A stretch of 39,827 nucleotides of DNA, taken from NCBI GenBank assembly GCA_035544455.1, contig DATKEI010000078.1, forward strand, positions 1 through 39,827, given 5' to 3'. The notes beneath the pieces were generated by a model. It made no database searches. It was not told the DNA's origin and saw only the letters and a program-made list of their open reading frames with translations. A program made the position numbers and the translations under genes. Below, in pieces: positions 19,591 to 36,427 of the stretch (positions within the stretch are counted from its first letter, which is position 1; the number at the start of each line of letters is the position of its first letter). The stretch comes from Candidatus Binatia bacterium (GTDB lineage: Bacteria; Methylomirabilota; Methylomirabilia; Rokubacteriales; CSP1-6).

Positions 19591-19606
19591 TGGCACGCCG
19601 GGTGCT
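19591..19606 (+). promoter_or_regulatory. Sigma-54 (-24/-12) promoter-like motif TGGCACGCCGGGTGCT
   Basis: Matches TGGCACG-N4-TTGCW with correct GG/GC spacing and one -12 mismatch. It sits in the divergent region between the activator and the tad locus, 528 nt upstream of the flp ATG. Confidence 0.45.
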
Positions 19607-19693
19607 GTCCCTGATCCGTCGGAAGCGGTCGGGATCACACGGCAACGGCGAGGGAGCGACCAGGATGTGGGTCCCGGAGAGAGTGACAGCAGC

Positions 19694-19921: not shown

Positions 19922-20118
19922 GCGCTCCGGTGAGATGAAGAGGCAGCCGAGGCCACCCGGCGGCGCGCCGGGGGCGGGGGGGGCGGCGAGGCGGCGGCCC
20001 TCCAGGAGCCAGGTGGAGCCCGCGGTCGCCGACATGGCGGGGCGGCGGGCGGTGCAGTGAATTTTTCGGTGGCGCATGGACCGTGCGCGGCGCGGGCATG
20101 CGCGGAGAGGGGACGCAG

Positions 20119-20304
20119 ATGCTGAAGAAGCTGTGGGCTTACGCGAAGGACGAGCAGGGCATCGAGACGCTGGAGTGGCTCGGGATCGGCGCGCTGATCT
20201 TGGCGGTGGCCTTCGTCGTGTATCCGGGAACGCTCCAGGCCGAACTCGTGACGGTGGCCACCAACATCGGAGCCGCGCTCACCGGTATCGTGATCGCCCC
20301 GTAG
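20119..20304 (+). CDS. flp: Flp/Fap family type IVc pilin
   Basis: 61 aa: MLKKLWAYAKDEQG / IETLEWLGIGALILAVAF. This has the Flp leader-G/XXXXE[YW] processing motif followed by a hydrophobic helix. GGAGAGGGG RBS. Confidence 0.8.
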   Translation: MLKKLWAYAKDEQGIETLEWLGIGALILAVAFVVYPGTLQAELVTVATNIGAALTGIVIAP

Positions 20305-20353
20305 GCCCGGCCACCGACACCGTCTTCTCAACCCTGAAACCAGCACATGTCGG

Positions 20354-20380
20354 CCCTGGGCTCGATGTTCGAGCCCAGGG
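20354..20380 (+). terminator. Perfect 12-bp-stem hairpin just after flp (attenuator or mRNA-stabiliser candidate)
   Basis: CCCTGGGCTCGA-tgt-TCGAGCCCAGGG. No U-tract. Confidence 0.5.
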
Positions 20381-20398
20381 TCGAGCCGGGGCAAAGCC

Positions 20399-20809
20399 AT
20401 GAGGCGTCTCGCATCCAGGAACCAGCGTGGGACCTCCACCCTGGAGTTGCTCGCGGTTCTGCCCACCCTCCTGTTCGTTTTCCTGGTGGGAGTCGAGATG
20501 AGCAGGGCCTGGCTGACGGCCACCCTGGTGACCAACGCCGTCCGGGAGGGCGTCCGGACCGCATCGGTGGCGCCCGCGGCCACCGCGCCCGCGGAGGGCC
20601 TGGCAAGGATCAACGAGGTCCTGGCGTCTGCGAATCTGACCGCGGCGATAGGCCCGACGGTCACCTGCAATCCGGCCCCCTGCTCCACGGAGACGGACTC
20701 GCGGGTGGAAGCCACCGTGACCGTGAACTTCCAGACCATCGTCCCGATCTTCGTGCCGATGCTGGATTCGGTTCCGATCCAGCAGACTGCCAGCATGCGG
20801 TTCGAGTGA
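20399..20809 (+). CDS. tadE: TadE-like pseudopilin / pilus assembly protein
   Basis: 136 aa. N-terminal RGTSTLELLAVLPTLLFVFLVGVE matches the TadE/TadG N-terminal motif. Confidence 0.8.
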   Translation: MRRLASRNQRGTSTLELLAVLPTLLFVFLVGVEMSRAWLTATLVTNAVREGVRTASVAPAATAPAEGLARINEVLASANLTAAIGPTVTCNPAPCSTETDSRVEATVTVNFQTIVPIFVPMLDSVPIQQTASMRFE

Positions 20810-20826
20810 GCACTCTCCCTGAGATG

Positions 20827-20856
20827 TCCGCAAGGTCAAAGTCCGCAAGGTCAAAG
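20827..20856 (+). repeat. Perfect 15-bp tandem direct repeat (TCCGCAAGGTCAAAG x2) between tadE and cpaB
   Basis: Read directly. It is relatively AT-rich and ends 17 nt before the cpaB ATG. Confidence 0.9.
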
Positions 20857-20872
20857 ATCGAGGTGAAGTGAC

Positions 20873-21784
20873 ATGCGCATGCGAGTCGTGATGATCCTGC
20901 TGGTCGCCTCCGTGATGGGCCTGCTCGCGAGCTTCCTGGTGTACCGCGTGGTCAGCCAGGTGGCGGCCGGCGGCCCCCAGGAGCGGAACACCCCCATCGT
21001 GGTGGCCACCGCGAACATGGGGCTGGCCGACACGGTCACGGCCCAGCACGTGAAGCTCGTGGCCTGGCCGAAGACGTCGGTCCCGTCGGGGTCCTTCGCG
21101 AAGGTCGAGGACGCCGAGGGCAGGGTGGTCCGGGGCTCGATCGTCGCCGGCGAGCCGCTCATCGAGGCCAAGCTGGCCCCCGAGCTGTCGGGCCGGGGCG
21201 GCATCATGCCCATGCTGATCGCCGAGGGGCGCCGCGGGGTGTCGATCAAGGTGGACGACGCCGTCCGGGAGACGGGCTTCGTGATGCCCAACAGCAGGGT
21301 CGACGTCCTGGTGAGCATGGCGAAGACCAAGGACTCCGACGAGCGCATCGCGAAGGTGATCCTGCAGGACATCCCGGTGCTCGCGGCTGGCCAGACGGTC
21401 GAGATGCGCGACAACAAGCCGGTGACCGTGACCACCGTCACCCTGTCGCTCACCCCCGAGCAGACCGAGCGCCTCGCGGTGGCCCAGGCCGAGGGCCGGC
21501 TCACCCTGGCCCTGCGCAACCTGCGCGACAACGCGGTGGTGCAGACGCCGGGGGCGACGCCCACCGCGCTCCTGACCGACCCGGGTGCCGCCCGGCCCGC
21601 GCCACCCGTGGCCACCCCCGCCGCGCCCCGACCACGGGCGGTCCCGGCGGCGGCTCCCCTGCCGCCCCCGAAGCTCGATGCCCGCACCGTGTCCGTCATC
21701 CGGGGCCAGAAGGTGAGCGAGCAGATGTTCATCCGGCAGGACGGCCAGCACTGGGTCGAGCGCACCGACTCCAAGCGGCCGTAG
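20873..21784 (+). CDS. cpaB: Flp pilus assembly protein CpaB (SAF domain + RcpC)
   Basis: 303 aa. N-terminal TM, then a pattern typical of CpaB: VVVATANMGLADTVTAQHVKLVAWPK...GEPL. Confidence 0.88.
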   Translation: MRMRVVMILLVASVMGLLASFLVYRVVSQVAAGGPQERNTPIVVATANMGLADTVTAQHVKLVAWPKTSVPSGSFAKVEDAEGRVVRGSIVAGEPLIEAKLAPELSGRGGIMPMLIAEGRRGVSIKVDDAVRETGFVMPNSRVDVLVSMAKTKDSDERIAKVILQDIPVLAAGQTVEMRDNKPVTVTTVTLSLTPEQTERLAVAQAEGRLTLALRNLRDNAVVQTPGATPTALLTDPGAARPAPPVATPAAPRPRAVPAAAPLPPPKLDARTVSVIRGQKVSEQMFIRQDGQHWVERTDSKRP

Positions 21785-21812
21785 ACCCACGTCGATCGAG
21801 GAGAGAGAATCC

Positions 21813-22289
21813 ATGACCCGCTCGCGCGTGAATCGAATGCTCGCCCTGGCCGCCGGGCTGCTGGCCGGGGCCGTGGCCCTCGGCGGCCCGGCCGCGCCGG
21901 CCGGCGCCCAGACGCTGACCAGGCTCTACCTCTCCAAGGACAAGTCGCAGGTGCTGGATCTCCGCCAGCCGGCGGCGACGGTGGCCGTGGCCAACCCCGC
22001 CATCGCCGACGTGCAGGTGATCTCCCCGACCCGCCTGCTGGTGATTGGCCGGTCGGTGGGCGTCACCTCGCTGGTGACCTTCTCGGACGCGGCGGTGGGC
22101 CACTACGACGTCGTGGTGCACCCCGCCCCGATGGTCGAGGTGGCGGCCCAGCCGCTCCAGGGCGCTCCCCACGGCGTGCTGGTGCAGAGGGCCGACAAGC
22201 TCACCGAGCACTTCTTCACGCGCGACACCACTCAGCAGTGGGTCGAGCTGGGCAGCGTGAAGGTCGAGCCGGACGCCGGGAAGAAGTGA
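21813..22289 (+). CDS. Secreted protein consisting of a secretin/pilus-formation N-terminal domain only
   Basis: Signal peptide. KSQVLDLRQPAATVAVANPAIADVQVISPTRLLVIGRSVGVTSLVTF is paralogous to residues about 40-95 of the downstream secretin. Confidence 0.7.
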   Translation: MTRSRVNRMLALAAGLLAGAVALGGPAAPAGAQTLTRLYLSKDKSQVLDLRQPAATVAVANPAIADVQVISPTRLLVIGRSVGVTSLVTFSDAAVGHYDVVVHPAPMVEVAAQPLQGAPHGVLVQRADKLTEHFFTRDTTQQWVELGSVKVEPDAGKK

Positions 22290-22294
22290 CGGCC

Positions 22295-23671
22295 ATGGAC
22301 CGCCTCCGCCGCCGCCAGCCCGCCGTCCTCGCCCTGGCACTGGCCGTTGCCGTCCTGGCCGGGTCGCACGCGTCCTCCCTCGGCGCGCAGCCGGCCATGG
22401 TCCGGCTCGACGTGACCATCGGGAAGTCGCAGGTGCTGGACCTCCAGGAGCCCTTCACCCGCGTCTCCGTGACCAACCCGGCCATCGCCGACGCCTTCGT
22501 CGTCACCCCGAACCAGATCCTGATCAACGGCAAGGCGGTGGGGACCACGTCGCTGGTGGTCTTCTACCCGGGCAAGACCGTCTTCTTCGACCTGGTGGTG
22601 CAGAGCGACCTGGGCCTCCTGCGGGAGCGCCTGCGGCAGGTGGCCCCCCGGGACGAGATCGACGTTCAGCCCGCCCGCGAGGCCATCATCCTGACCGGCA
22701 GCGTGACGAGCGAGCGGACGATCGCCGGCGCCGCCGAGGTGGCCGCGGTGTTCGCGCCCCGGGGCAAGGTGGTGAACCTCCTGAGCCTCACCGACGCCAA
22801 GCCCCAGCAGGTGATGCTGCAGGTGCACGTGGCCGAGGTGAACCGGGACGCCCTGAGGGAGTTCGGGATCGCCTTCCGCGCCATGGACGCCCCCAACCTG
22901 CGGGGGGGCATGTCCACGCCCGGGCGCAGCCCGTTCTTCGAGATGCTGGGGCTGGCCGCCACCAGTGGGGCGAACTTCTTGCTGCCCGGGGCCAGCTTCT
23001 TCATCGCCAACGAGAACTACGCGGGTCTGGTGCGAGCCCTGAGCGACCGCAACCTCCTCCGCACCCTGGCCAAGCCCAACCTGGTGACCCAGAGCGGCAA
23101 GGAGGCCAAGTTCCTCTCGGGCGGCGAGTTCCCCTTCCCGGTGGCCCAGGAGTTCAACACCATCACCGTGGAATTCAAGGAATTCGGCATCGGCCTCATC
23201 TTCACCCCGGTGGTGGTGGACGGCGAGACCATCAACTTGCAGGTGCGCCCCGAGGTGTCGAGCCTGGACTTCAGCCAGGGGCTGGAGGCGGCCGGGTTCC
23301 GCATCCCAGTGGTTCGCAAGAACGAGGTGGCGACCACCATCAGCATCAAGGACGGCGAGTCGTTCGCCATCGCGGGGCTCATCAACAACGAGGTGCGCCA
23401 GACGGTGGGCAAGATCCCCATCCTCGGAGACATCCCCATCCTGGGTGCCCTCTTCCGCAGCACGCGCTTCCAGAACAACGAGACGGAGCTGCTCTTCCTG
23501 GTGACGGTGAAGCTGGTGCAGCCGGGCCCGCCCGGCACCGCCCCCGACCCGACCAGGCTGATGGAGCTGCGACCGGAGGAGAAGAAGGAGTTCACCTTGG
23601 TTCCGGGCATCCCCGGCGTGGGTGAGGTGGTGACGCGCCCGTTCGGCAAGAGCAACCTGCCGGCACAGTGA
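22295..23671 (+). CDS. cpaC: Tad secretin CpaC/RcpA
   Basis: 458 aa from MDRLRRRQPAVLAL. N-domain, then secretin core (LAKPNLVTQSGKEAKFLSGGEFP, IPILGDIPILGALFRS). Confidence 0.92.
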   Translation: MDRLRRRQPAVLALALAVAVLAGSHASSLGAQPAMVRLDVTIGKSQVLDLQEPFTRVSVTNPAIADAFVVTPNQILINGKAVGTTSLVVFYPGKTVFFDLVVQSDLGLLRERLRQVAPRDEIDVQPAREAIILTGSVTSERTIAGAAEVAAVFAPRGKVVNLLSLTDAKPQQVMLQVHVAEVNRDALREFGIAFRAMDAPNLRGGMSTPGRSPFFEMLGLAATSGANFLLPGASFFIANENYAGLVRALSDRNLLRTLAKPNLVTQSGKEAKFLSGGEFPFPVAQEFNTITVEFKEFGIGLIFTPVVVDGETINLQVRPEVSSLDFSQGLEAAGFRIPVVRKNEVATTISIKDGESFAIAGLINNEVRQTVGKIPILGDIPILGALFRSTRFQNNETELLFLVTVKLVQPGPPGTAPDPTRLMELRPEEKKEFTLVPGIPGVGEVVTRPFGKSNLPAQ

Positions 23672-24891
23672 GCGCAGGCGGAGCCCGGGACATGCTGAGA
23701 ACCGTCATCATCGACTCCGACCCCGAGGCGCAGGGGGCGCTGCGCCGCCTGCTGGCGGCCAGCCCCGCCGTGGCCGTGGTCGGGGAGTTCGGCAGCCTCC
23801 AGGAGTCGATGGCCGAGGCGGCCGCGCGCCGGCCCGACCTGGTCATCGCCGAGGTGCCGGTGCGGCCCGGCGAGGCCGACCTCGGCCGCGGCACCAAGGC
23901 GATGGAGTCGCTGGTCCGGGCCGTGCCCGATGCGGCCATCTTCGCCACCGGCCCCGCCCTGCCGGCCGAGGCGGTGATCCAGCTCATGCGGGCCGGCGCC
24001 ATCGAGGTGCTCACCCGCCCGGTGGAACGGGAGGCGCTGCTGGGCGCCCTCGACAAGGTGCTGCGGCTGCGCCGCTCGGCCGCCCCGGCCCGCCAGGCCG
24101 GGCGCATCGTGTCGGTGTTCTCCACCAAGGGCGGCCTCGGCGTGACCACCATGGCCAGCAACCTGGCCGTGTGCCTGGCCGAGCATGCGCCGGAGCGCGT
24201 CGCCCTGATCGACCTCGACACCCGGCAGTCCGACATCGCCACCCACCTGAACCTCCGGCCCACCTACTCGGTGCTCGACGCCCTGGAGAGCCTGGACCGG
24301 CTGGACGAGTCGTTCCTGCAGGGGCTCATGGTGAAGCATCCGAGCGGCCTGCTGGTGCTGCCGGGGCCCACCCGCATCGAGCGGGCGCAGCTCGGCGGGG
24401 AGCAGGTGCGGGTGGCCCTCGACAGCATCCGCGCGCACTTCGCCCACGTGGTGATCGACCTGCGCCACGACCTGGACGGCGGGACGATTGCGGCCCTGGA
24501 GGCCTCGGACACCATCTTCTTCCTCACCAGCCTCGACGTGTGCACCCTGCGCTCGAGCGCCGCGGGGCTGGCCGCCTTCCGGCACCTCGGACTGAACCTC
24601 CAGCGAGTCCAGGTGGTGGTGATGCGCGAGGACACGGCGGAGGACGTCACCCTGAAGCACGCCCGGGACACCCTCGGCGTCGCCGTGTCGTGGAAGACCC
24701 CCAGCGATTACCCGGCGGTGGTGGCCTCGATCAACTCGGGGCAGCCGGTCGTGAGCGCGGCGCCCCGGTCGCGGATCGCGCGCAACCTGCGCCAGCTCGC
24801 GGCCACGCTGCTGCCTCCCCCCGCCAGCCGGCGCGGCGCCGCCGCGCTGGCCCGACTGCTCTGGACCCCCAAGGGATCGACGGGAGACTAG
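23668..24891 (+). CDS. cpaE: CpaE/TadZ: atypical receiver-like domain + ParA/MinD-type ATPase
   Basis: GTG 23668 overlaps the cpaC stop (GTGA). Alternative ATG at 23692. Deviant Walker A STKGGLGVTT. In the receiver-like domain the expected phospho-acceptor position reads DLVIAEV. Confidence 0.85.
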   Translation: MSAGGARDMLRTVIIDSDPEAQGALRRLLAASPAVAVVGEFGSLQESMAEAAARRPDLVIAEVPVRPGEADLGRGTKAMESLVRAVPDAAIFATGPALPAEAVIQLMRAGAIEVLTRPVEREALLGALDKVLRLRRSAAPARQAGRIVSVFSTKGGLGVTTMASNLAVCLAEHAPERVALIDLDTRQSDIATHLNLRPTYSVLDALESLDRLDESFLQGLMVKHPSGLLVLPGPTRIERAQLGGEQVRVALDSIRAHFAHVVIDLRHDLDGGTIAALEASDTIFFLTSLDVCTLRSSAAGLAAFRHLGLNLQRVQVVVMREDTAEDVTLKHARDTLGVAVSWKTPSDYPAVVASINSGQPVVSAAPRSRIARNLRQLAATLLPPPASRRGAAALARLLWTPKGSTGD

Positions 24892-26262
24892 ATGGCACTC
24901 TTCCAGCGCAAGCTCGCCCTCCGCCCCGAGCCGTCCCGGCCCGCGGCGGTCGCCCCCCAGCCCGAGGCGCCGCCGAAGGTCGAGGTGGCCTACTACGAGC
25001 TGAAGAACCGCATCCACCGCCAGCTCATCGAGCGCCTCGACCTGGCCAAGCTGACCCTCCTGCCGGTGGACGCGGTGCAGCAGCAGATCCGCCGGGTGGT
25101 GGAGGACATGCTGGCCGGCGAGGACACCCCCCTGAGCCGGCAGGAGCGGGAGAAGCTCGTCACCGAGGTCGAGCACGAGACGTTCGGTCTCGGGCCCATC
25201 GAGCCCCTGATGCAGGACCCGACCGTGTCCGACATCCTCGTCAACGGGGCCCGGAACATCTACGTGGAGCGCCGGGGCAAGCTCGAGCGCACCCGGGTGA
25301 TCTTCCGCGACGACGCGCATCTCCTGCAGGTGATCGAGCGCATCGTGTCCCGCGTGGGCCGGCGCGTGGACGAGTCGTCGCCCATGGTCGACGCCCGCCT
25401 GCCCGACGGCTCGCGGGTCAACGCCATCATCCCCCCGCTGGCCCTGGACGGCCCGGTGCTGTCCATCCGGCGCTTCTCCGTGGACCCCTTCCGGGCGTCG
25501 GACCTGGTGGGCTTCGGCACCCTCACGCCCGATCTCGTGGAGATCCTCCGCGCCGCCGTGCAGTCGCGGCTCAACATCCTCGTGTCAGGGGGCACCGGCG
25601 CCGGCAAGACGACGCTGCTGAACGTCCTGTCCAACTTCATCCCCGGGCGCGAGCGCATCGTCACCATCGAGGACTCGGCCGAGCTGCAGCTCCAGCAGGA
25701 GCACGTGGTGCGCCTGGAGACGCGGCCCCCCAACATCGAGGGCGCGGGCGCGGTGACCCAGCGCGACCTGATCCGGAACGCCCTGCGGATGCGGCCCGAC
25801 CGCATCGTGGTGGGCGAGGTGCGCGGCCCCGAGGTGCTGGACATGCTTCAGGCCATGAACACCGGGCACGACGGGTCCATCTCCACCGTGCACGCCAACT
25901 CCTCCCGCGACGCCCTGTCGCGCATCGAGACCATGGTGCTGATGGCGGGCCTGCCGCTGCCGATGCGAGCCATGCGCGACTACATCGCCTCCGCCCTCGA
26001 CATGATCATCCACCTGGCGCGGCTGTCCGACGGCACGCGCAGGGTGGTCCGGGTGACTGAGGTGGTGGGCATGGAGGAGGACGTGATCACCACGCAGGAC
26101 ATCTTCGTCTTCGAGCAGGAGGGGATCGACGCCGAGGGGCGCGTGATGGGCACCCACCGCGCCACCGGCATCCGGCCCAAGTTCAGCGATCGGCTGCTCC
26201 AGGCGGGCGTCCACCTGGGCCTCGAGGTGTTCGACCCCCACCGGCACCAGGCGGTGCGCTAG
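24892..26262 (+). CDS. cpaF: CpaF/TadA secretion ATPase
   Basis: 456 aa. Walker [10 protein letters not shown], Walker [25 protein letters not shown] His box. Confidence 0.95.
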
Positions 26263-26264
26263 CC

Positions 26265-27200
26265 ATGGCCCTGCTCGTCGCCCTCCTGGTGTTCCTGATC
26301 GTCGCGACCCTGGTGGTCGGGCTGTGGTGGGCGTCCGAGCGGCGCCGCCAGATGCGCGACCGCCTGGCCACGGCCGGCGTACCGGACGACACACAGATCC
26401 TCCGGCCCGGCATCGACCAGCCCGGAGCGCTCGGCACGGCCCTCTCCGGCAGCAAGTACTACGGCAAGCTGGGCGACCTCGTCGTCCAGGCCGGCTTCAA
26501 GCAGTCGACGGCGGACTGGGCGCTGGTGGTGATCGCCTTCGCCGCCGTCGGGGGCGCCGCTGCCTGGCTGCGGACCGGCTCGGTCGCCTGGGGCATCCTC
26601 GCCATGCCGCTGGCCGCCGCCATTCCCGCCTGCTATCTCGCCTATCGCCGGCACCGCCGCCTGACCCTCTTCGGGGCCCAGCTGCCGGAGGCGCTCGACA
26701 TGCTCGCCCGCGCCATTCGGGCCGGCAACGCCCTGAGCGGGGCCATCCGCCTCGTGGGCGAGGAGATGCCGGACCCGATCGGCGAGGAGTTCCGCCAGGT
26801 GTCCGAGGAGATCCGGCTTGGCATGGAGCCGAGCGAGTCGCTGTCGAGGCTGCAGTACCGGGTGCCCGTCGAGGACATGGTGTTCTTCTGCACCGCCATC
26901 CGCATCCAGCGCGGATCCGGGGGCAACCTGGCGGAGGTGCTCGACCGCCTGGCCGAGGTCATCCGGGAGCGGTTCAAGATCCTCAGCTACGCCCGCGTGC
27001 TCTCGGCCCAGCACAAGTGGTCGGCCATCCTCGTCGGCCTCAGCCCTGCCATCGCCGCGGTGGCGTTCGCCATCCTCCAGCCAACCTACTTCAGCGAGCT
27101 CCTCACGAACCCCATCGGCCCGACTCTGATTGGCGCCGGGCTGGCGCTCGAGGCTATCGGCTTCTTCGCAGTCTGGCGCATCGCCAAGATCAAGGTCTGA
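26265..27200 (+). CDS. tadB: TadB (GspF-like inner-membrane platform protein)
   Basis: 311 aa. T2SSF-type domain (LPEALDMLARAIRAGNAL) flanked by TM segments. Confidence 0.88.
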   Translation: MALLVALLVFLIVATLVVGLWWASERRRQMRDRLATAGVPDDTQILRPGIDQPGALGTALSGSKYYGKLGDLVVQAGFKQSTADWALVVIAFAAVGGAAAWLRTGSVAWGILAMPLAAAIPACYLAYRRHRRLTLFGAQLPEALDMLARAIRAGNALSGAIRLVGEEMPDPIGEEFRQVSEEIRLGMEPSESLSRLQYRVPVEDMVFFCTAIRIQRGSGGNLAEVLDRLAEVIRERFKILSYARVLSAQHKWSAILVGLSPAIAAVAFAILQPTYFSELLTNPIGPTLIGAGLALEAIGFFAVWRIAKIKV

Positions 27201-27204
27201 CGCC

Positions 27205-28149
27205 ATGGATCCCACTATCGTCGTCGTTCTCTCCTTCGTGATCGTGGCCGGTTTCACCCTCCTGATTGGCATCACCCTCATGCGGCTCTGGCCGGCCGTG
27301 CGCGCGGGGCGACTGGCCGGAACAGCGGCGGGAGCCTCCGGCGATGCGTCCATCTTCCGCTGGTCGGATGCACCCGAGTCGGGCATCCGGGGCATCCTCC
27401 ACCACCTGGGCAGGTCCGCCGCCCCCCGGACCGAGGCGGGCCGCTCGCGCTACCGGAGCAAGCTCGCGTGGGCGGGGTATCACGACCCGAACGCCCTGCT
27501 CCTCTTCGTGGGCGCCAAGGTGGCGCTGGCCCTGTTGGTGGGCTCGGGCTACTTCATCTACGGGATCACCGTCCAGCGCGTCCTGCCCAACCTCTTCGCC
27601 GTCAGCCTGGGGCTGGCGGCGGCCGGGTTCTTCCTGCCGGACTTCTGGCTGCACAACCGGATCAAGGCCCGCCGACGCGAGATCGTCCATGCCCTGCCGG
27701 ACGTCCTCGACATGCTCACGGTGTGCGTCGAGGCCGGGATGGGCTTCGACGCCGCCGTGACGCGCGTGGCCGAGCAGCCGGAGGCGCGGTCCAGCCCGCT
27801 CCATCAGGAGCTGCGGCGGACGAGCCTCGAAGTCCGGGCCGGGCGCCCGCGCGCCGAGGCGTTGCGCGCGCTGGGTGAGCGTACAGGGGCCCAGGAAGTG
27901 AAGGCTGTGGTGGGGGCCTTCATCCAGACCGAGAAGCTCGGCACGCCGCTCGGCAAGACCCTGCGGATCCACGCCGAGGCCGCCCGCGTCCAGCGCCGTC
28001 ATCGGGCAGAGGAACGGGCGCATCTGGCGCCCCTCAAGATGCTCGGGCCCACGGTCTTCTTTCTGTTCCCCGCGTTCTTCCTGGTCGCCCTCGCCCCGTC
28101 ATTGCTGAACATCCTCGCCCTCCTGAAGGCGATCGGTGGCACGAGATAG
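27205..28149 (+). CDS. tadC: TadC (GspF-like inner-membrane platform protein)
   Basis: Starts MDPTIVVVLSF (ATG 27205). LPDVLDMLTVCVEAGMGF motif, C-terminal TM. Confidence 0.88.
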   Translation: MDPTIVVVLSFVIVAGFTLLIGITLMRLWPAVRAGRLAGTAAGASGDASIFRWSDAPESGIRGILHHLGRSAAPRTEAGRSRYRSKLAWAGYHDPNALLLFVGAKVALALLVGSGYFIYGITVQRVLPNLFAVSLGLAAAGFFLPDFWLHNRIKARRREIVHALPDVLDMLTVCVEAGMGFDAAVTRVAEQPEARSSPLHQELRRTSLEVRAGRPRAEALRALGERTGAQEVKAVVGAFIQTEKLGTPLGKTLRIHAEAARVQRRHRAEERAHLAPLKMLGPTVFFLFPAFFLVALAPSLLNILALLKAIGGTR

Positions 28150-28178
28150 ATGGAGTCTTACCCATGGAGGCATTGGGC

Positions 28179-28799
28179 ATGAGCCGATCTGCCGTACTGA
28201 TGGCCCTTTCGCTGGCCCTCGGAGTTCTGCCGCTGGAGCGCGCCCTCGCTCAGGACATCAGCGCCGAGGTGCGTACGTGGGCTGGCCAGTCGCTCCGTCT
28301 CGATCAGGTGTCGATCGAGGTGTTCTACACGATCTTCCCTCCGCCGGCAGACGATGGGCAGGCCTCGGGAAGCGCAAGCATGGAGGGTCTGTCCATGCTG
28401 GACCGAGACGTCCGGACCGGCTCGGGCCGCCTGGAGGCCGGACAGATGTTCGGCTCGATGCGCTCCCTCGGAGCCATGCTCGATCGGGGGCCAGATCCCA
28501 TGCAGGGGAACAAGAGCTCTGACGCGGTGACGTTCTACCGGGGTGGGGTGGCCCAGCAGGTGCCGGTGGCGAACCTCGCGGCCATGATGTTCGAGCGGAC
28601 GCCGGTGCGCGACAGCGGCCTGCCGCCCTACGTGGCCCCAGCGCACTATCGGTTTGCCGCCACGGCGGTCCTCACCGATGGACGGCGTGTGGAAGGAGAC
28701 TACGTCAACCTCGGCACCGCCATCGTCCGCGGCACGACGCAGGAAGGACGCGTCGAGATCCCCTGGCAGCAGATCGAGAGCATCCGGTTCGCCCGGTGA
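28179..28799 (+). CDS. Secreted hypothetical protein (no recognisable domain)
   Basis: Signal peptide MSRSAVLMALSLALGVLPLERALA-QD. GGAGG lies 8 nt upstream of ATG 28179 (alternative ATG 28164). Confidence 0.6.
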   Translation: MSRSAVLMALSLALGVLPLERALAQDISAEVRTWAGQSLRLDQVSIEVFYTIFPPPADDGQASGSASMEGLSMLDRDVRTGSGRLEAGQMFGSMRSLGAMLDRGPDPMQGNKSSDAVTFYRGGVAQQVPVANLAAMMFERTPVRDSGLPPYVAPAHYRFAATAVLTDGRRVEGDYVNLGTAIVRGTTQEGRVEIPWQQIESIRFAR

Positions 28800-28824
28800 G
28801 CTGTCACGGAGAGGAGGGACGGCG

Positions 28825-30183
28825 ATGAGGCGCGGGCGCTTCACGAATCAGCGCGGCACGGTCCTGCTCTTCACCACGGCGCTGGTCTTGCCCCTCATGA
28901 TCATCTTCGGGGGGCTCGGCATGGACGTCGCGTATTACGGCACGGTCGACACCGAGCTGCAGCGCTCCATGGACGCGGCATCCCTGGCCGGGGCCGGCAA
29001 GCTGGGGTTCACCACGGAGCAGTTCCCCGACGCCCGCAACTTCGCCCGCCAGTACGGGCAGCTCAACGCCTACCGCGTGGGCACCGTCGATCTGGACCTG
29101 AACGTGGGGAACGCGCCGGACGGCGACATCGTGTTGGGCATCTGGGACCCGGACGCGCGGACGTTCACGCCTTCCCTGAACGGCGTTCTCGTGGACGCCG
29201 TGCGCACGACCACCTCGGCGCCGGTGCCGATGTCGTTCCTCCGCCTGGCCGGCATCAACACGATGACGGCGCGGGCGTCGGCCATCGCCTGGGCGCCGCC
29301 GCCGACCATCCCGCCCTCGTGCATCTTCCCGGTAAGCCTCACCGACACGCCGTTCGAGCCCGGGGGCGCCTCGGGCTGTGGGCGGCCGGCCCGGTTCATC
29401 TCGAGCTCCACCAGCTCGGAGATCGGCTTCAACACCGCGGGCTGGGTGAACCTGCAGGGATGCGGGACGCCCAATGCCAACATGACGCGGGATGCCATCG
29501 ACGACGCGGCCTCGGGGAACTGCCCGACCACCGACCGTCGCGCCGGCGACTACGTGGGCACCAACGGGGGCATGATCCAGTCCGGCTTCAACCGGATCGT
29601 TCACCACTTCCCGATCAAGTTCAACGAGTCCGGCATGATCGAGATCGACGAGACCGACCCGAACACGGGACAGCCGCTGAGGAGCTACGAGGGGCCGGGC
29701 TGGTCGACGGTGGTGCCGGTGGTGGCCGCCTGCACGTGCTCGAGCGGCTGCCCGACGGCCAGCCTTCCGTTCGGCCTGTCCATGCTGGCGCGGCTGATCC
29801 GCGGCGACTTCTCGTGTGGGTCGCTGTTCGTGGGCACCGCCTTCGCCCAGGGCGAGGGAGGCGGTGGCAGTGGCACCGGCGGCGACTGCGGCTGCCCCGC
29901 CAACGTCACCCAGAACCGGCCCATCGTGGGATGGACCCGCCTGGTGATCACCCAGGTCATCGACGGGGGGCGATGCCTGGTGCACAACCCCCACGACACC
30001 GGGAACGCGCAGTACTGGCCGCCCCAGGGGGGCAACCCGAACCCGTGTGGCACCCGCCCATCCGAGCCGGGCGACTCTGCCCTCCGCGAGATCTACGGCT
30101 ACTACCTCTGCGAGCTGTTCGACACGCCGGGGGAGGCCGCGGGACCGGCGAGCGCGCGGGGCAAGCCGAAGCTGGTGCGGTAG
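28825..30183 (+). CDS. tadG: TadG-like pilus assembly protein with a Cys-rich C-terminal region
   Basis: N-terminal RGTVLLFTTALVLPLMIIFGGLGMDVAYY (Tad N-terminal motif). 452 aa. GGAGAGGAGGG RBS. Confidence 0.7.
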   Translation: MRRGRFTNQRGTVLLFTTALVLPLMIIFGGLGMDVAYYGTVDTELQRSMDAASLAGAGKLGFTTEQFPDARNFARQYGQLNAYRVGTVDLDLNVGNAPDGDIVLGIWDPDARTFTPSLNGVLVDAVRTTTSAPVPMSFLRLAGINTMTARASAIAWAPPPTIPPSCIFPVSLTDTPFEPGGASGCGRPARFISSSTSSEIGFNTAGWVNLQGCGTPNANMTRDAIDDAASGNCPTTDRRAGDYVGTNGGMIQSGFNRIVHHFPIKFNESGMIEIDETDPNTGQPLRSYEGPGWSTVVPVVAACTCSSGCPTASLPFGLSMLARLIRGDFSCGSLFVGTAFAQGEGGGGSGTGGDCGCPANVTQNRPIVGWTRLVITQVIDGGRCLVHNPHDTGNAQYWPPQGGNPNPCGTRPSEPGDSALREIYGYYLCELFDTPGEAAGPASARGKPKLVR

Positions 30184-30185
30184 TC

Positions 30186-31094
30186 ATGGGCTTCCCTGGG
30201 CCCCAGGCCGGCCGGGCGCTCCGCCAGGGCTTGCTGGCGGGACTTGGCCTCGGCGCGGCCGCCCTCGCCTCCTCGGGCTGCGTCTCCGCCGGCCTGGCCG
30301 CCGCTGGCCCACTGGCCACGGCCATCTACGCCGTGGCGGACCGGAGCGTGGAGCGCACGCTGCCGGCCGACCAGGTGGCCGCCTGGGACGCCACGGTGGA
30401 AACCTTCCGGCGCATGGCCCTGCGGGTCGAGGGGGCCGAGCAGTCGGGAGAGAGCTGGGTGCTGCGCGGCACCGGCGAGAAGGTCTCGGTGGAGGCGACG
30501 CTGGCGCCGGTGACGGCGCGCATGACCAGCCTGGGTCTGCGGGTGGAGGCGGGGCGGCTCACCGCGGACAAGAAGACGGCGGACGAGATCCTGAACCAGG
30601 TGGCGGCCTCGCTTGCGGCGGCCACGGCGGCCGCCCGGCCCCGCGAGACCGCGCCGGCCGCGGCCGATCCGCGCGCGGCCGAGGCCCTGTCCTCGCTCCG
30701 GCAGGAGGTCGAGCGGCTCGGGGCCAGGATGGACCGGGCGCCGGCCCCGGAGCGGGCCCCGGGCACGGCCGGAGCGACCGCGTCGCCGGCGGTGCTGGAG
30801 GCGGGCGCCATCGTGGTGGTGCCCACGTCGGTCGGGGTACCGAGCGTCGAGCCGCTGCCGGGCAGCGCCCTGGCCGGCGGGTTCGCAGGGCCAACCCTGG
30901 CCGCGCCGATCGCCGCGGGTTCGCTCCGCGACGGTCGGGCGAGCGACGACGTCGCGTCGCCCCAGGGCAATGGCATCGGGGGCTGGGAGCCGGTGAGGGT
31001 CGGGGTGGAGACGGACCTGCTCGTGCCCGCGCTGGCGCCGGCCGGCGTGCTTGCGCCGGTCGAGGGTGTGCCGGAGCGGCGCGGCGGCCCCTGA
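30186..31094 (+). CDS. Probable lipoprotein, unknown function (possibly DUF3568-like N-domain) with an Ala/Pro-rich tail
   Basis: LGAAALASSGC lipobox-like signal. The ATG lies 3 nt after the tadG stop. Confidence 0.6.
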   Translation: MGFPGPQAGRALRQGLLAGLGLGAAALASSGCVSAGLAAAGPLATAIYAVADRSVERTLPADQVAAWDATVETFRRMALRVEGAEQSGESWVLRGTGEKVSVEATLAPVTARMTSLGLRVEAGRLTADKKTADEILNQVAASLAAATAAARPRETAPAAADPRAAEALSSLRQEVERLGARMDRAPAPERAPGTAGATASPAVLEAGAIVVVPTSVGVPSVEPLPGSALAGGFAGPTLAAPIAAGSLRDGRASDDVASPQGNGIGGWEPVRVGVETDLLVPALAPAGVLAPVEGVPERRGGP

Positions 31095-31190
31095 TCGCCG
31101 AGGGAGCCGGCCGGGCCCCGGGCAGCGGCCGACCTCCTCTCCGCGCATGAACGCCCGCGAGCTGCGCGGCGGGACCTGGGCGCCATCGTC

Positions 31191-33881
31191 ATGACCATCC
31201 CGGAAACTCCATGGAGTCGCGCTGGCCACTCGCCGCTGCTGCGGGGCCCCGGGCCGGCGCACGTTCGTCAGGGAAACCTCACTGCCGCCTTTGTCTGGTC
31301 GGCGGCCCTTCACACCGTGGCCCTGACCTGGGTGGTCCTGCTGATCCAGGCGCCCCCGGGCGGAAGCGCTCTCGACGTCTTTCCGGTTGCCGGCCCGACC
31401 GACATCGCTCGCCAGGTGGCCGGCCCGGAGCCGGTCCTGACCGGCCCCGAGACTGCCGGCGTGGCGGCGCCAGGGCCAGGCACCGGCCTCGAGGTGAGGG
31501 TGCGGCCCAGCCCGCCCCGCCCGGCGCGCCCCGGAGGAGATGTGGGGACGGCGCCGTCGCGGCCGACTCTGGCGGCCCCCGTCCCGGCCACGGCCGGCCC
31601 GGGGGTGGCAACCTCCACGGCGCGCGCGGTCCCTCCGCCTTCTCCGCCCGCGCCGCGCTCGCACCTGGCGAGCCGGCCGGCCGTCGAGCGCGTGGTGGGG
31701 CTGGCCCTGCTGCTGGCCCCGGGAGCGCCGGCGGCGGCAACTCCCCCTCCCGTTGCGTCGGCAGCGCAGGTCCCGCGACTCTCGGCGGTCGAGGATGTCG
31801 TGGCCGGGCCCCCGGGACACGGCAGCGGCGCCCCGGGCGAGGCTCTCCCGGTCGTGCGGGTCCTGGCCGACATCCAGGAGGCCGGCCCCGCGGTCGCGCC
31901 CAGCCCGACGCGCCCGGCTACCCGAGCCGCTCCGGTGCCGTCGCCGCCAGCCCCGCGCGAGACGCGGCTGGTTCGCGCCGGCCCGGAAGAGCCGCCTGCG
32001 CCAGCCACGGCCGCCCCGGCAAGACCGGCGGTACAGGTCGTCGCCCCCGACGATCACAGGCAGGTCCCGTCGCCTGCCCGGCTCCGCCCCGCGCCGGTGC
32101 TGGCGCTCGGGGAGCATCCCGATCCACCGGCGACTCGCGAGATGTCGGCGCCGACAGCCGAGGCACCCCTGGAGCCGGCGCCGCCGGCCATTGCGCAGCG
32201 CGCACCCGCGGCCGTCGAAGCGCCGGCCCCGGAGCCGCATGTGCCGTTGCCCCTGGCGGCGGATCCTGCCTGGCCCGCTCTGCCCCCTCCGGGGCCACCG
32301 GTGATCTCTCCGGCGCAGATCATCGAGGCCTCCCCGCCCGTTCCATCGCCAGCGCCCCGGGGCCAGCCGGCGCCGGCGGAGGCGCCGTCGACCCCGGCCG
32401 AGGCACGCGTGGCCACCCCGGAACCGCAGCATCCCGCGCCCACCCCGGTGCCGGCCCTGCTTCCTGCGCCGGCCGCGACGGCCGCGCACCACAGCACTCC
32501 GGACGCAGTGCCGGCGGCCCCGCCCCCGGCACCTCCCGCGCCGGCCAGCATCGCCTCCCGGCCCGCCGAGGTGGCCGTTCCCGTGGCGGAGGCGCCTCCG
32601 GCAGCGCCCGCCGCGGCGTCTCCTGCCATGGCTCCTCCCGTCGCGCATCCTGCGATGGCCTCGGGCGCGACTCCCAGCGCACCCCCCGCCGCTCCGCCCG
32701 CGCCGGCCGCTGCTGCTCTCGCGGGCACACCCGAGCGCGCCCCGGTGCCGGAGCCGCTGCCCCGGCCACCGCCCGCTCCCCGGATCCCGCAGTCACCCGC
32801 GCCCGCCCCTCACGCGGCCAACCCGCTGCTCCCGCGGCCCGGCACCGTGCTCGGCCTTGGCCTCGCGCGCGTCCGGGTGGAGCTGGAGGCGCCGCGGCAG
32901 AAGGTGACCGACCGCGAGACGGACCGCGTGTCGGGGCGGGTGTTCGGCGGCCCCGCGGGGGGCGTGTCGCTCCACGTGAACGGCGTCGAGACCGCCGTCG
33001 AGCTGAAGGAGCGGGGTTTTCGCGCGGCAGTCAGCCTGCGGCCCGGCCTCAACTCCATTCGCGCCGTCGTGGCTGGCCCCGGAGGCGCCGAGGCCGAGGA
33101 CGCGGTGACGGTCGAGTACGTCCCGCCGCTGCCGGCGGACGGCATCCTGCTGGCGAGCCCGCGCGACGGGCTCACCCTGGGGGCGGACGACCCGCCGGCG
33201 GTGGTGGTGGAGGGCCGGCTGGGAGATCCCGCGGCCACCGCGGTGTGGCTGGTGGCCAACGACCGGCGGGTCCAGGTGGCGGCCGCGGGGGGCCGGTTCC
33301 GCCACGTGGTGCCGGTGCTGGAGCCGGCGGTGCGCATCTGGGCCGAGCTGGACTCGCCGAACGGGGCCCCGCCGCCGCGCAGCGAGGCCGTCACCGTGCA
33401 TGCGGGGGCGGTCCGGCCCGCGGCGGGCGTGCTCGTGATGGACTGGGTGTCCGACCCCGAGGCGGTCGAGGTGACGGCGAGCTGGCGGGGCAGTCCGGAG
33501 CGCCTCGATGTCGCGCCGGTCCCCGTGTCCCTCCGACCGCTCGGGGGCGAGCGCGACCGCCGGCCGGCCGCCTTCTACCTCGGCAACCTGAGACCGGGGA
33601 TCTACACGTTCGCCGTGCGCGCCCGGGGCGCGGGGGCGCGGGCCGGCGTTCACTCGACCCTCTATCTCGGGAACGGCGGGGCCGTGCAGCAGCGCACGCT
33701 GGCCCCGGTGTCCCTCGGGCCCGGCGAGCGCGTCGTGCTGGCGCGCGTGCTCCACCCGCACGGGGTCTTCTGGGACGAGGACGCCTGGTTCACCGGCCGG
33801 AGCGAGAGCGCCGAGGCTATCACCAAGTTCCGCTTCCCCGAGGGCGTCACCTGGGTGGAGCGCAAGGCGGATGTCCAGTGA
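31191..33881 (+). CDS. 896-aa membrane-anchored protein: TonB-like N-terminal TM (S-x3-H), ~500-aa Pro/Ala-rich spacer, ~330-aa beta-rich C-terminal region
   Basis: TM FVWSAALHTVALTWVVLLI. Extreme P/A low complexity from about residue 90 to 560. The C-terminal part has normal composition (VSGRVFGG...LHVNGVE...). Confidence 0.65.
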   Translation: MTIPETPWSRAGHSPLLRGPGPAHVRQGNLTAAFVWSAALHTVALTWVVLLIQAPPGGSALDVFPVAGPTDIARQVAGPEPVLTGPETAGVAAPGPGTGLEVRVRPSPPRPARPGGDVGTAPSRPTLAAPVPATAGPGVATSTARAVPPPSPPAPRSHLASRPAVERVVGLALLLAPGAPAAATPPPVASAAQVPRLSAVEDVVAGPPGHGSGAPGEALPVVRVLADIQEAGPAVAPSPTRPATRAAPVPSPPAPRETRLVRAGPEEPPAPATAAPARPAVQVVAPDDHRQVPSPARLRPAPVLALGEHPDPPATREMSAPTAEAPLEPAPPAIAQRAPAAVEAPAPEPHVPLPLAADPAWPALPPPGPPVISPAQIIEASPPVPSPAPRGQPAPAEAPSTPAEARVATPEPQHPAPTPVPALLPAPAATAAHHSTPDAVPAAPPPAPPAPASIASRPAEVAVPVAEAPPAAPAAASPAMAPPVAHPAMASGATPSAPPAAPPAPAAAALAGTPERAPVPEPLPRPPPAPRIPQSPAPAPHAANPLLPRPGTVLGLGLARVRVELEAPRQKVTDRETDRVSGRVFGGPAGGVSLHVNGVETAVELKERGFRAAVSLRPGLNSIRAVVAGPGGAEAEDAVTVEYVPPLPADGILLASPRDGLTLGADDPPAVVVEGRLGDPAATAVWLVANDRRVQVAAAGGRFRHVVPVLEPAVRIWAELDSPNGAPPPRSEAVTVHAGAVRPAAGVLVMDWVSDPEAVEVTASWRGSPERLDVAPVPVSLRPLGGERDRRPAAFYLGNLRPGIYTFAVRARGAGARAGVHSTLYLGNGGAVQQRTLAPVSLGPGERVVLARVLHPHGVFWDEDAWFTGRSESAEAITKFRFPEGVTWVERKADVQ

Positions 33882-34609
33882 GGCGGCGGGCGTTCCTGGG
33901 CGGAGGGCTCGCCGCCGCGGCGGCCGCCTCACTCGCGGCGAGCCCGGCCGACCTGAACCAGGCCGGCATGGCCGCCTACGGGCGCGGCGACTACGCGGCG
34001 GCCGAGCAGCTCTTCACCCGGGCCGCCGCCCGTGCCCCGCGCGACCCGCTGCTCCACTACCACCGTGGCGTGGCGCTGAGCCGCCTCTCGCGGTGGAGCG
34101 AGGCCACCGCCGCCTACCAGTCGGCCCTGCGCCTGGGCCCGCCCCCGGAGCTGGCCGCGACGATCCGGGAGGCGATGCGGGCGGCCGCGCCGTACACGGA
34201 GGCCCGGCCGGTGCCGCGGCGCGGGCCCGAGGAGCACGAGGTGCCGCTCGATCGCATGGCGGGCGGGTGGATCGCCGAGGTGGTGCTGAACGACACCCGC
34301 ACCGCGCGCTTCCTGGTGGACACGGGGGCCAGCATCTGCGTGATCGCCCCCGGCCTGGCCCGTGAGCTGGGCATCGCCCCCGGCCCCGGCGCCGAGGAGA
34401 TCCTGCTCCAGACCCTGTCCGGGCAGACCAGGGGGCCAGTGGTGCGCATCCCCGTGCTGCGGGTGGGCGACGCCGAGAGCCGATCGGTGCCGGCCGTGGT
34501 GCACGAGACGGGCCCCTCGATGGACGGCATCCTGGGCAACACCTTCCTCGGTCGCTTCACCGTCACGGTGGACCCTGGCCGCCGGGTCCTGAGCCTCCGC
34601 TCGAGGTGA
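33878..34609 (+). CDS. Tat-signal TPR + retropepsin-like (clan AA) aspartic protease fusion
   Basis: GTG 33878 overlaps the upstream stop (GTGA). Twin-arginine signal RRRAFLGGGLAAAAAASLAA. TPR-like AGMAAYGRGDYAAAEQLF...YQSALRL. Active-site FLVDTGAS. Confidence 0.75.
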   Translation: MRRRAFLGGGLAAAAAASLAASPADLNQAGMAAYGRGDYAAAEQLFTRAAARAPRDPLLHYHRGVALSRLSRWSEATAAYQSALRLGPPPELAATIREAMRAAAPYTEARPVPRRGPEEHEVPLDRMAGGWIAEVVLNDTRTARFLVDTGASICVIAPGLARELGIAPGPGAEEILLQTLSGQTRGPVVRIPVLRVGDAESRSVPAVVHETGPSMDGILGNTFLGRFTVTVDPGRRVLSLRSR

Positions 34610-34867: not shown

Positions 34868-35383
34868 TCAGCCCATCGCGCTCACGAGGAGGCCGCCGAG
34901 CAGGGCGATGATGGCCCCCACCGGCATCCGCGTCTTCCGGGTGGCCCGGTGGGCCGCCAGCAGCACCAGCGCCACCGCCCCGCCGATGATCTGGGAGGCG
35001 GCCAGCACCAGCAGCGCCCGCTGCCAGCCGAGCGACGCCCCCAGCAGGGCCATCAGCTTGATGTCGCCCCCCCCCATGGCGCCACGGCTCACCACGGCCA
35101 CCACCAGCACCACCCCGCCTCCGGCGACGGCGCCCAGCGCCGCCTCCCCGAGCGCCTCCAGCCCGCGCGCGGCGGCCAGGGCGAGCGCGTACGCGAGGGT
35201 GGGGAGCGTCACGACGTCCGGGATGATGCGGCTGCGGAGATCCAGCACGGTGACGAGGGCGAGGGCGGCGAGCACCGGCAGCAGCAGCGCCCAGCGCACG
35301 CCGGGGCCCAGCCGGCCCAGCGCCAGCAGGGCCAGCAGCGCGGCGATGGCGCACACCCCGGCCAGGGGCAGCGGCCGGCGCAC
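34868..35383 (-). CDS. cpaA: A24-family prepilin peptidase (CpaA/TadV type, no methyltransferase domain)
   Basis: Catalytic Asp contexts RIIPDVV and GGGDIKLMA. Polytopic. The GTG start at 35383 (alternative 35356) lies 17 nt after the upstream gene's stop. Confidence 0.8.
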   Translation of the reverse strand: MRRPLPLAGVCAIAALLALLALGRLGPGVRWALLLPVLAALALVTVLDLRSRIIPDVVTLPTLAYALALAAARGLEALGEAALGAVAGGGVVLVVAVVSRGAMGGGDIKLMALLGASLGWQRALLVLAASQIIGGAVALVLLAAHRATRKTRMPVGAIIALLGGLLVSAMG

Positions 35384-35400
35384 CGCGGCGAGGGCCGCGG

Positions 35401-36129
35401 CTACCTCGGGCTTGAGGGCCAGGCGGGGGACCCCCCTGGCGACGGCTGGGCGGGGCCCGGGCCGGGCGGGGGCAGCAGGCCCGCGCCCACCCGGTAGGAC
35501 GCGAGCTGCTCCTCGAACTGGGCGGCGCCGCGCCGGCCGGCCCACTTCACGTGAAAGCCGACCTCCGGCGCGAACCAGTACTCGTCGGCGTCCCCCGCCG
35601 CACCTTCTCGCACGACCTTCATGGCCTCGAAGCGCCCCGCCGGCACCTCCACCACCTCGGGGCCCAAGATGGTGAACGTGTCCACAACCTCGCGCTGGCC
35701 GGAGCGATCCTCGTAGGTGCCGCGATGCTTCCACCGGCGGCCGGCCTCCATGGGCCACATGAACAGGGGCTGCGGCGGGGTCATGCGCGACTCGACGGTG
35801 TCCCGCCTCAGGGTGCCCACCAGGTGGAGGTCGCGGGTGTAGAGGTGGTCGACCTCGCCGATGCGGAGCACGTAGAGCGGGGTGGAGCCGAACATCCGCA
35901 CCTCGACCATCTCGACGGTGCGGGTGCCCCGGTCGGCGCCGAAGGTCCAGTCGAACGTCCAGCGGTCGCCCGGTCGCCACTCCGGCGGCGCGAGCCAGGC
36001 CGGCGCCGGCGGGCCGGCGGGGGGGAGCGTCACCGGCGCCTGCGGCGCGGCGCAGGCCGCGATTCCGAGGGCGAGGGCCCCCACGGCGGTCGATCGGCCC
36101 CAGGCCCGGAGGAACCGGCGATCCGACAT
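35401..36129 (-). CDS. Tat-type lipoprotein, unknown function
   Basis: MSDRRFLRAWGRSTAVGALALGIAAC: twin-arginine motif plus lipobox. 242 aa. Confidence 0.65.
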   Translation of the reverse strand: MSDRRFLRAWGRSTAVGALALGIAACAAPQAPVTLPPAGPPAPAWLAPPEWRPGDRWTFDWTFGADRGTRTVEMVEVRMFGSTPLYVLRIGEVDHLYTRDLHLVGTLRRDTVESRMTPPQPLFMWPMEAGRRWKHRGTYEDRSGQREVVDTFTILGPEVVEVPAGRFEAMKVVREGAAGDADEYWFAPEVGFHVKWAGRRGAAQFEEQLASYRVGAGLLPPPGPGPAQPSPGGSPAWPSSPR

Positions 36130-36195
36130 GTCGGGCGGATGATCGCACGGGGCCGCGCGAAATGGCAAGAAGCCGGACCCGCCGGGGGTCCGGCA

Positions 36196-36210
36196 TGGCA
36201 CGGGGCTGGC
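36196..36210 (+). promoter_or_regulatory. Sigma-54 (-24/-12) promoter-like motif TGGCACGGGGCTGGC
   Basis: Perfect -24 TGGCACG, correct spacing to the -12 GC. It lies 53 nt upstream of the ATG at 36263. Confidence 0.45.
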
Positions 36211-36262
36211 GGCACTGGAGGGCGCGGGCGGGATGGCCCGGCGCCGGAAGGAGGAGCGCGAG

Positions 36263-36427
36263 ATGAAGAACCTGGGGATCGTCGCGATCGCCGTCGGCAT
36301 CCTGCTGATCCTGCTCACCCTCGCCGGCGTCATCGGTCAGGAGAGCCCGCGGGTGGCCGTGATCGGCGCGGCGGTGATCCTGGTGGTCGGGATCTTCCTG
36401 TACCGGCGCCATCCCGCGGGATCGTGA
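36263..36427 (+). CDS. Small two-TM membrane protein (54 aa)
   Basis: MKNLGIVAIAVGILLILLTLAGV...VIGAAVILVVGIFLY. GGAAGGAGGAG RBS. Confidence 0.5.
   Translation: MKNLGIVAIAVGILLILLTLAGVIGQESPRVAVIGAAVILVVGIFLYRRHPAGS

Follow-up and report, generated by a model that had tools for sequence, protein, structure and literature searches.

The 39.8-kb stretch of DNA analysed here (39,827 nucleotides, hereafter the window) carries a complete Tad pilus operon, the penultimate gene of which encodes a protein of 896 amino acids (positions 31191-33881, forward strand; hereafter the target). This protein is anchored in the inner membrane and follows the plan of TonB and TolA: a helix bearing a Ser/His motif, a long low-complexity linker and a globular C-terminal part, an architecture that we confirmed to be conserved across its family. 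It is very probably a genuine component of the Tad machine. Our reading of the whole, which stays tentative, is that the target is a Tad-machine accessory of the TonB/TolA plan with a new three-domain head, which would transduce force via a stator encoded in trans. The gene and its parts are as follows.

31191-33881 (+): target gene, 896 amino acids; predicted bitopic inner-membrane protein (TolA/TonB-type module at the N-terminus, then Pro/Ala linker, then three beta-sandwich domains)
31191-31280 (+): N-terminal segment, residues 1-30, predicted cytoplasmic; its start aligns with the N-terminus of family member P0003
31281-31349 (+): transmembrane helix TAAFVWSAALHTVALTWVVLLIQ, residues 31-53; single hydropathy peak of the target
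31368-31394 (+): candidate strand ALDVFPVAG, residues 60-68, resembling a motor box or D-box; 19-27 residues past His41
31395-32852 (+): Pro/Ala-rich low-complexity linker, about 490-502 amino acids
32853-33128 (+): beta-sandwich domain 1, residues ~555-646; immunoglobulin (Ig)-like and weakly Glucodextran_B-like (AlphaFold2 (AF2), Pfam)
33129-33419 (+): beta-sandwich domain 2, residues ~647-743 (AF2); generic tandem-Ig matches only (Foldseek)
33420-33878 (+): beta-sandwich domain 3, residues 744-896; best-conserved part of the target

The open reading frame of the target is a real gene. The frame is uninterrupted over its 896 codons, and in a window whose G+C content is about 73%, the G+C fraction at the third position of this frame is 0.94-0.97 over 32800-33880. 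In the Pro/Ala-rich part, the bases follow the pattern of CCN and GCN codons read in this frame. Homologues match its translation at the N-terminal helix and over the last 342 residues. The ATG at 31191 is the earliest in-frame start past the stop at 31092-31094. Open reading frames 31211-34609 (+) and 30102-32648 (-) were considered as genes and rejected, as both give an Arg/Gly-rich junk translation; third-position G+C and the homologues favour the frame of 31191, the only real portion of the 31211 frame being its tail, which corresponds to the downstream protease gene described below. The gene lying upstream of the target (30186-31094) shares its frame, with one TGA stop and 96 nt between them. 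Read-through from this gene across the TGA at 31092-31094 was also rejected, because relatives carry two separate genes there.

Architecture of the target and its relatives

The family was defined by the C-terminal part of the target and clustered at 50% identity, which gave 379 clusters at E ≤ 1e-3 and 171 at E ≤ 1e-10. Nearly all of the members listed are matched up to their C-terminal end; in a few repeat proteins the match is internal. The sole name that the sources give to these proteins is 'hypothetical protein'. The named carrier genomes are mostly metagenome-assembled genomes (MAGs) of Candidatus Rokubacteria/Methylomirabilota, together with a few bins labelled Limnocylindria, Anaerolineaceae, Gemmatimonadales, Binatia or Vicinamibacterales.

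An earlier note on this DNA had claimed a single N-terminal transmembrane helix with an S-x3-H arrangement. Indeed, the target shows one hydropathy peak, which contains Ser37 (codon 31299-31301) and His41 (codon 31311-31313), and residues 1-36 comprise three Arg/Lys as against one Asp/Glu. Conservation of the Ser and His in orthologues, on which the note had staked its proposal, held in essentially all of them. When the helix was set by hydropathy alone, S-x3-H was found within it in 70 of the 87 helix-bearing family proteins of at least 450 amino acids. The remaining 17 are mostly gene calls that begin within the helix (MLHVIVLG, VLHVIVLG), proteins with an additional N-terminal helix that have SLLLH in the second one, and unrelated multi-Ig repeat proteins, the genuine exceptions numbering about two (P0062 and P0092). 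When 46 non-redundant N-termini were aligned (mean column identity 26%), no column was invariant except those of the Ser and the His, and the motif is essentially invariant over more than 170 family clusters, down to 25-30% identity. Further along the helix, the seventh residue after the His is Leu in 33 of the 70 motif-bearing members, and 57 of the 70 have Ala, Thr, Gly or Ser as the eleventh, but such residues are common in any helix.

Right after the helix, the family consensus shows a DVFAAD block, and then nothing is conserved until the C-terminal domains. In the target this block reads ALDVFPVAG; it is preceded by prolines and has one Pro within. The position of the strand was compared with that in the known transducers by running the same simple beta-propensity script on the family, on E. 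coli TonB and on E. coli TolA. The best beta-prone window of the family lies a median of 26.5 residues past the His (interquartile range 22-31; examples are ISFVLAD, FDVFAAD, FYVFLAS, LYVSL and FLVVEL), and the same script gives an offset of 25 in TonB (ISVTMV) and of 28 in TolA (IDAVMV). In transducers, a beta-strand located just past the helix, termed the D-box (PMC10907165) or motor box (PMC12204202), binds the ExbD/TolR dimer. The candidate strand of the target family thus appears to lie where TonB and TolA carry this element, which would favour the transducer reading.

The N-terminal profile of the family was also searched against 177,635 PDB sequences. Six matches were obtained at E ≤ 10, three of which are TolA, in register on S18/H22 with an E value of about 0.45 that is not significant alone. 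In a targeted profile test, TolA scored 15.7 bits (per-sequence E = 6.6e-7) and TonB aligned in register, weakly, at 2.7 bits; these scores speak for a specific pattern and are no proof of common descent.

The linker of the target consists of 27% Pro and 24% Ala and has no tandem repeats. The earlier note had described it as about 500 residues of almost pure Pro/Ala: the length stood (502 amino acids) but the purity did not, Pro and Ala together making up about half. Across the family the linkers range from 81 to 912 amino acids, with a median of 270, and their sequence is not conserved in the alignments.

For the C-terminal part, an AF2 model of the last 342 residues was built with a 44-sequence alignment. 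The model is all-beta and comprises three beta-sandwich domains, with a mean predicted local distance difference test score (pLDDT) of 87.6; domain 3 modelled alone reached a mean pLDDT of 88.6 and a predicted template-modelling score of 0.85. The ending of domain 3, W..WFTGRSES..ITKFRFPEG..W.ER, contains residues that are nearly invariant in the family. Matches to known folds were few and faint. PF09136 (Glucodextran_B) was found, weakly, on the first domain in 17 of 21 family members, and Foldseek against the PDB returned generic tandem-Ig proteins only, with a template-modelling score (TM-score) of at most 0.26 over the whole chain. The fold search with domain 3 against the PDB gave nothing significant, the best match being PcoC/CopC-like (E = 0.04, TM-score ≤ 0.39), and searching PDB sequences with the C-terminal part gave one weak Ig-domain match only (Roundabout, E = 0.006). 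PF03544, PF13103 and PF06519 are absent from the 21 members scanned with Pfam, and NCBIfam gave no TonB_C or TolA match. The C-terminal ~330 residues are therefore, as proposed from the sequence, beta-rich and unlike a TonB C-terminal domain, since the model is all-beta and neither database recognized TonB_C or TolA. Nor did these searches match any known adhesin or peptidoglycan-binding family, the outcome that the earlier note had set against its own proposal; they returned generic tandem-Ig proteins. Likewise, the target shows no match to the named Tad proteins (TadD, TadG, RcpB, RcpC and others), weak Glucodextran_B being all that Pfam and NCBIfam give, and it matches no HR, PilP or GspB domain in Pfam/NCBIfam or among the top 50 Foldseek matches.

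Note that one subgroup of paralogues (P0035-P0045, ~750 amino acids; for example L003 7852-10122 and L024 2432-4702) is without the first Ig-like domain. It retains the S-x3-H helix, a WEVFAADP strand and domains 2-3.

The Tad operon and its conservation

The assignment of the locus to the Tad class in the earlier note was borne out by Pfam, which identified TadE, CpaB, CpaC, TadZ, CpaF, TadB, TadC and the TadG-like protein. The part of the operon upstream of the target spans 20083-30183 (+) up to the TadG-like gene, and the whole reads as follows.

20083-20304 (+): candidate Flp
20399-20809 (+): TadE (Pfam)
20873-21784 (+): CpaB (Pfam)
21813-22289 (+): stand-alone pilN-domain protein, 158 amino acids (PF13629)
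22238-23671 (+): secretin CpaC (Pfam)
23668-24891 (+): TadZ, receiver domain plus ParA-like domain (Pfam)
24892-26262 (+): CpaF (Pfam)
26265-27200 (+): TadB (Pfam)
27130-28149 (+): TadC (Pfam)
28164-28799 (+): secreted protein of 211 amino acids
28825-30183 (+): TadG-like protein
30186-31094 (+): predicted lipoprotein (lipobox ALASSGC), immediately 5' of the target
31191-33881 (+): target
33878-34609 (+): protein with a Tat signal, TPR and a retropepsin-like aspartic protease domain; final gene of the operon

The GTG start of the last gene (33878) overlaps the TGA stop of the target. Its product matches Asp_protease_2 (E = 7e-20) and TPR families in Pfam and carries the twin-arginine signal RRRAFLGG; the usual place of TadD in the operon is taken by a TPR protein that is fused to a protease here. 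The 158-aa protein (21813-22289) consists of the pilN domain of secretin N-termini (PF13629) alone; its gene overlaps the downstream secretin gene and is kept in relatives. A gene for a sigma-54 activator lies upstream of the operon. The Myxococcus Kil system was considered as the same system and rejected: Kil has FHA-fused components and no TadG.

Synteny was assessed in the 12 close loci that have enough upstream flank. The order pilN, CpaC, TadZ, CpaF, TadB, TadC, secreted protein, TadG-like protein, small gene, target was observed in all 12. The small gene corresponds to the predicted lipoprotein of the window (30186-31094), whose sequence is not conserved in relatives, the slot being always filled by a small gene of 175-259 amino acids. 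The TPR-protease gene lies downstream of the target in 11 of the 12 loci, sometimes past one or two inserted genes; the twelfth contig stops earlier. In one relative, L002 (11965-13862), two additional genes stand between the target and the TPR-protease gene, encoding a prenyltransferase/squalene-cyclase-like protein (faint match) and a DUF362 protein.

Two family members of lower-GC organisms (L022 and L023), which share 27-31% identity with the target, also lie within Tad loci, in the order TadZ, CpaF, TadB, TadC, DUF192, GT-C glycosyltransferases, target. In these loci, DUF192 and two to three genes of the GT-C glycosyltransferase type (PMT_2, TMEM260_N, PTPS_related) stand between tadC and the target homologue, which hints at pilin glycosylation, and a gene of ~535 amino acids without a name overlaps the 3' end of the target homologue.

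Other genes of the window and its relatives are described here for completeness. A convergent gene pair on the reverse strand (34868-36333) encodes an A24 prepilin peptidase with the motif GGGDIKLM and a ~310-aa protein that belongs to no Pfam family and is conserved in every relative; a Pfam scan of 34868-35390 gave no Peptidase_A24 match, although the equivalent gene of L001 does match. The closest Rokubacteria MAG (L001) has, starting ~3.7 kb downstream of the Tad locus, genes with domains of the Tc-toxin type (TcA_TcB_BD, SpvB, TcdB_toxin_midN, RHS; 15556-21845), and the window is without them at the equivalent place. Finally, a 402-aa open reading frame at 7778-9340 (+) matches the RecA C-terminal domain (PF21096) at residues 126-176 and gives no RecA core match; its gene model or frame may be wrong.

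Transducer, scaffold or tether

Beyond the C-terminal domain, recent papers (PMC10907165, PMC12204202) define the transducer class by three features: a helix with the SHLS (Ser-His-Leu-Ser) motif, a D-box or motor box, and a middle domain that is Pro-rich or disordered. Like TolA and TonB of E. coli, the target has one N-terminal helix with Ser-x3-His (S18/H22 in TolA, S16/H20 in TonB), a beta-prone strand ~25-28 residues past the His, a Pro-rich or disordered middle and a globular C-terminal part. It differs from them in its three beta-sandwich domains, which replace the TonB_C or TolA-III fold, in a linker two to five times longer, and in its location in a Tad pilus operon that has neither exbBD nor tolQR in its vicinity.

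Transducers with other heads have been described. SHLS-bearing vWA 'force transducers' whose C-terminal domain is not that of TonB were proposed recently (Williams-Jones et al. 2025, PMC12204202). [quoted passage not shown] The vWA proteins have a vWA head and a ~100-aa linker and lie beside tolQ/tolR-like genes (PMC12204202), whereas the target family has three Ig-like domains, a linker of 81-912 amino acids and a place in Tad operons without a motor. In Pseudomonas aeruginosa, type IVa pili depend on PocAB-TonB3 for their assembly and for their placement at the pole (PMC5285504). There too, a TonB-type protein is linked to a type IV filament machine; however, TonB3 has its own ExbBD-like PocAB, is encoded outside the pilus assembly operon and serves type IVa rather than Tad pili. 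TonB3 also carries a TonB C-terminal domain. Likewise, GltG and GltJ couple AglRQS to the Agl-Glt gliding machine of Myxococcus xanthus; like the target, they are bitopic inner-membrane proteins with long disordered periplasmic stretches, and they join a TolQR-type motor to a machine other than Ton or Tol (PMC11761067). By contrast with the target, they have C-terminal domains resembling that of TonB and large cytoplasmic domains (FHA, ZnR, GYF), and the apparatus that they form part of serves gliding and is no pilus.

We consider it somewhat probable that the N-terminal module of the target is a motor-docking module of the TonB/TolA type, and proton-motive coupling is plausible on the basis of these sequence features. 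Docking on an ExbBD/TolQR-type stator encoded in trans would be the best single explanation because it accounts together for the invariant Ser/His face, the offset of the strand and the TolA match. In this mechanism, the helix would dock at the rim of a 5:2 proton-driven stator of the ExbB-ExbD/TolQ-TolR type, encoded elsewhere in the genome, and the ExbD/TolR dimer would capture the strand that follows the helix. The C-terminal domains, in the periplasm, would grip a periplasmic or outer-membrane part of the Tad machine, and motor activity would pull, position or gate the part so gripped. Candidates for this part are the N-domain ring of CpaC, one of the lipoproteins of the operon and the stand-alone pilN-domain protein, the latter being a candidate partner of the C-terminal domains.

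Several observations weigh against this reading. The earlier note had remarked that exbB/exbD and tolQ/tolR are missing from the window, and they are: a phmmer search with E. coli TolQ and TolR against all six-frame open reading frames found no homologue in the window, nor in ~21 related loci taken with up to 10 kb of flanking DNA, and Pfam found no MotA_ExbB or ExbD domain among the candidate open reading frames of the window that were scanned. The published vWA transducers, unlike the target, adjoin motor genes (PMC12204202). The likeness to the SHLS motif that the note had pointed out holds for the Ser/His pair but not for the other two positions, as the target has Val48 and Ile52 where E. 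coli TonB has Leu27 and Ser31. The N-terminal similarity spans ~20-30 residues, and the profile favours any S-x3-H helix; its scores rest largely on the motif itself. No TonB_C, TonB_2 or TolA match was found in Pfam or NCBIfam for the target, its N-terminus or its relatives, and the N-terminal 130 residues of six members hit no TonB family in Pfam even at E ≤ 10. A word-indexed search with the N-terminal region of P0034 retrieved eight close family members only and was uninformative on this point. The C-terminal domains offer no clue to a partner in Foldseek or PDB searches. A floppy linker of 502 residues (81-912 in the family) exceeds what the periplasm needs, and such slack is awkward for force transmission. 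Last, the paralogous subgroup P0035-P0045 has no Tad locus around it on its contigs, which are 6-10 kb long; in L003 the open reading frames called upstream of its gene look like Arg-rich junk, and therefore no partner could be inferred.

Part of this evidence suits a passive role. GspC, PilP and GspB (ExeB), which have a passive linking role in related machines, cross the inner membrane once, often carry a Pro-rich spacer and contact the secretin through their periplasmic domains. The target could similarly be a scaffold that joins the Tad platform of the inner membrane to the secretin or to the wall with no energy input, its Ser/His face packing on TadB/TadC or self-associating. Such a scaffold would be in keeping with a gene that directly follows tadB, tadC and tadG with no motor gene nearby, with a very long, unconserved linker of variable length, as befits a flexible tether, with Ig-like domains, which are typical docking modules for proteins, and with the lack of a TonB/TolA match in Pfam and NCBIfam. 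It leaves unexplained, however, why exactly the S-x3-H pair of TonB and TolA is invariant over such distances, why a beta-prone strand lies at the TonB/TolA offset, and why TolA was retrieved from the PDB. Moreover, the likeness to GspC, PilP and GspB lies in the single-pass anchor and the spacer, the target having no match to these sequence families in Pfam or NCBIfam, and we know of no conserved S-x3-H helix or motor box in them. A passive scaffold, the main rival reading, is possible, if doubtful.

A helix that does bind a housekeeping TolQR or Poc-like complex might also serve placement without force, by recruiting the Tad machine to the division site or future pole. The N-terminal profile is indeed nearer to TolA than to TonB, TolQ accumulates at the septum (PMC9389320), PocAB-TonB3 governs the polar placement of type IVa pili and of the flagellum (PMC5285504), and a long slack linker is no hindrance to placement. 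Yet the conserved strand resembling a motor box suggests that the ExbD/TolR dimer is engaged, an event linked to the force cycle (PMC10907165), and we regard a tether for placement only as improbable. That the target is an envelope or surface protein unrelated to the pilus and merely co-transcribed with it, such as an adhesin or a wall-associated protein, is very improbable: tandem Ig-like domains and Pro-rich spacers are common among adhesins and one subgroup occurs outside Tad loci, but the operon position is held in the 12 close loci and in two distant lineages, the target is translationally coupled to the next gene, and its N-terminal helix anchors it in the membrane rather than acting as a cleavable signal peptide.

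A possible second energy source for Tad pili

To our knowledge, type IV filament machines are thought to be powered by cytoplasmic ATPases alone, and the outer-membrane side of the diderm cell itself lacks a source of energy. The route by which energy is known to arrive there is through transducers of the TonB/TolA class acting on 5:2 proton motors. In the literature searched, we found no description of a TonB/TolA-like protein in a Tad operon, or of Tad pili in Rokubacteria. A conserved transducer-like protein encoded in such an operon would link these two classes of machines in a concrete and testable way.

The boldest extension, which we consider rather unlikely, is that the Tad pili of Methylomirabilota/Rokubacteria and of some other organisms have two energy sources: the CpaF ATPase and a proton-driven 5:2 stator shared with the Ton/Tol systems and reached via a dedicated transducer of the TolA/TonB class. 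If this were true, force drawn from the proton gradient would act at the secretin or in the periplasm and serve gating, retraction or tensioning of the pilus, or its passage through the wall, and the target would be the first force transducer encoded in a pilus operon, with a new C-terminal target-binding module. As a transducer, it would add a second non-TonB 'head' to those known, following the vWA class of 2025, and would offer a way into the question of what PocAB-TonB3 does for Pseudomonas pili, a role that lacks an explanation. Should it prove passive, the target still defines a component without a name, which occurs widely in soil metagenomes and is specific to a single Tad lineage.

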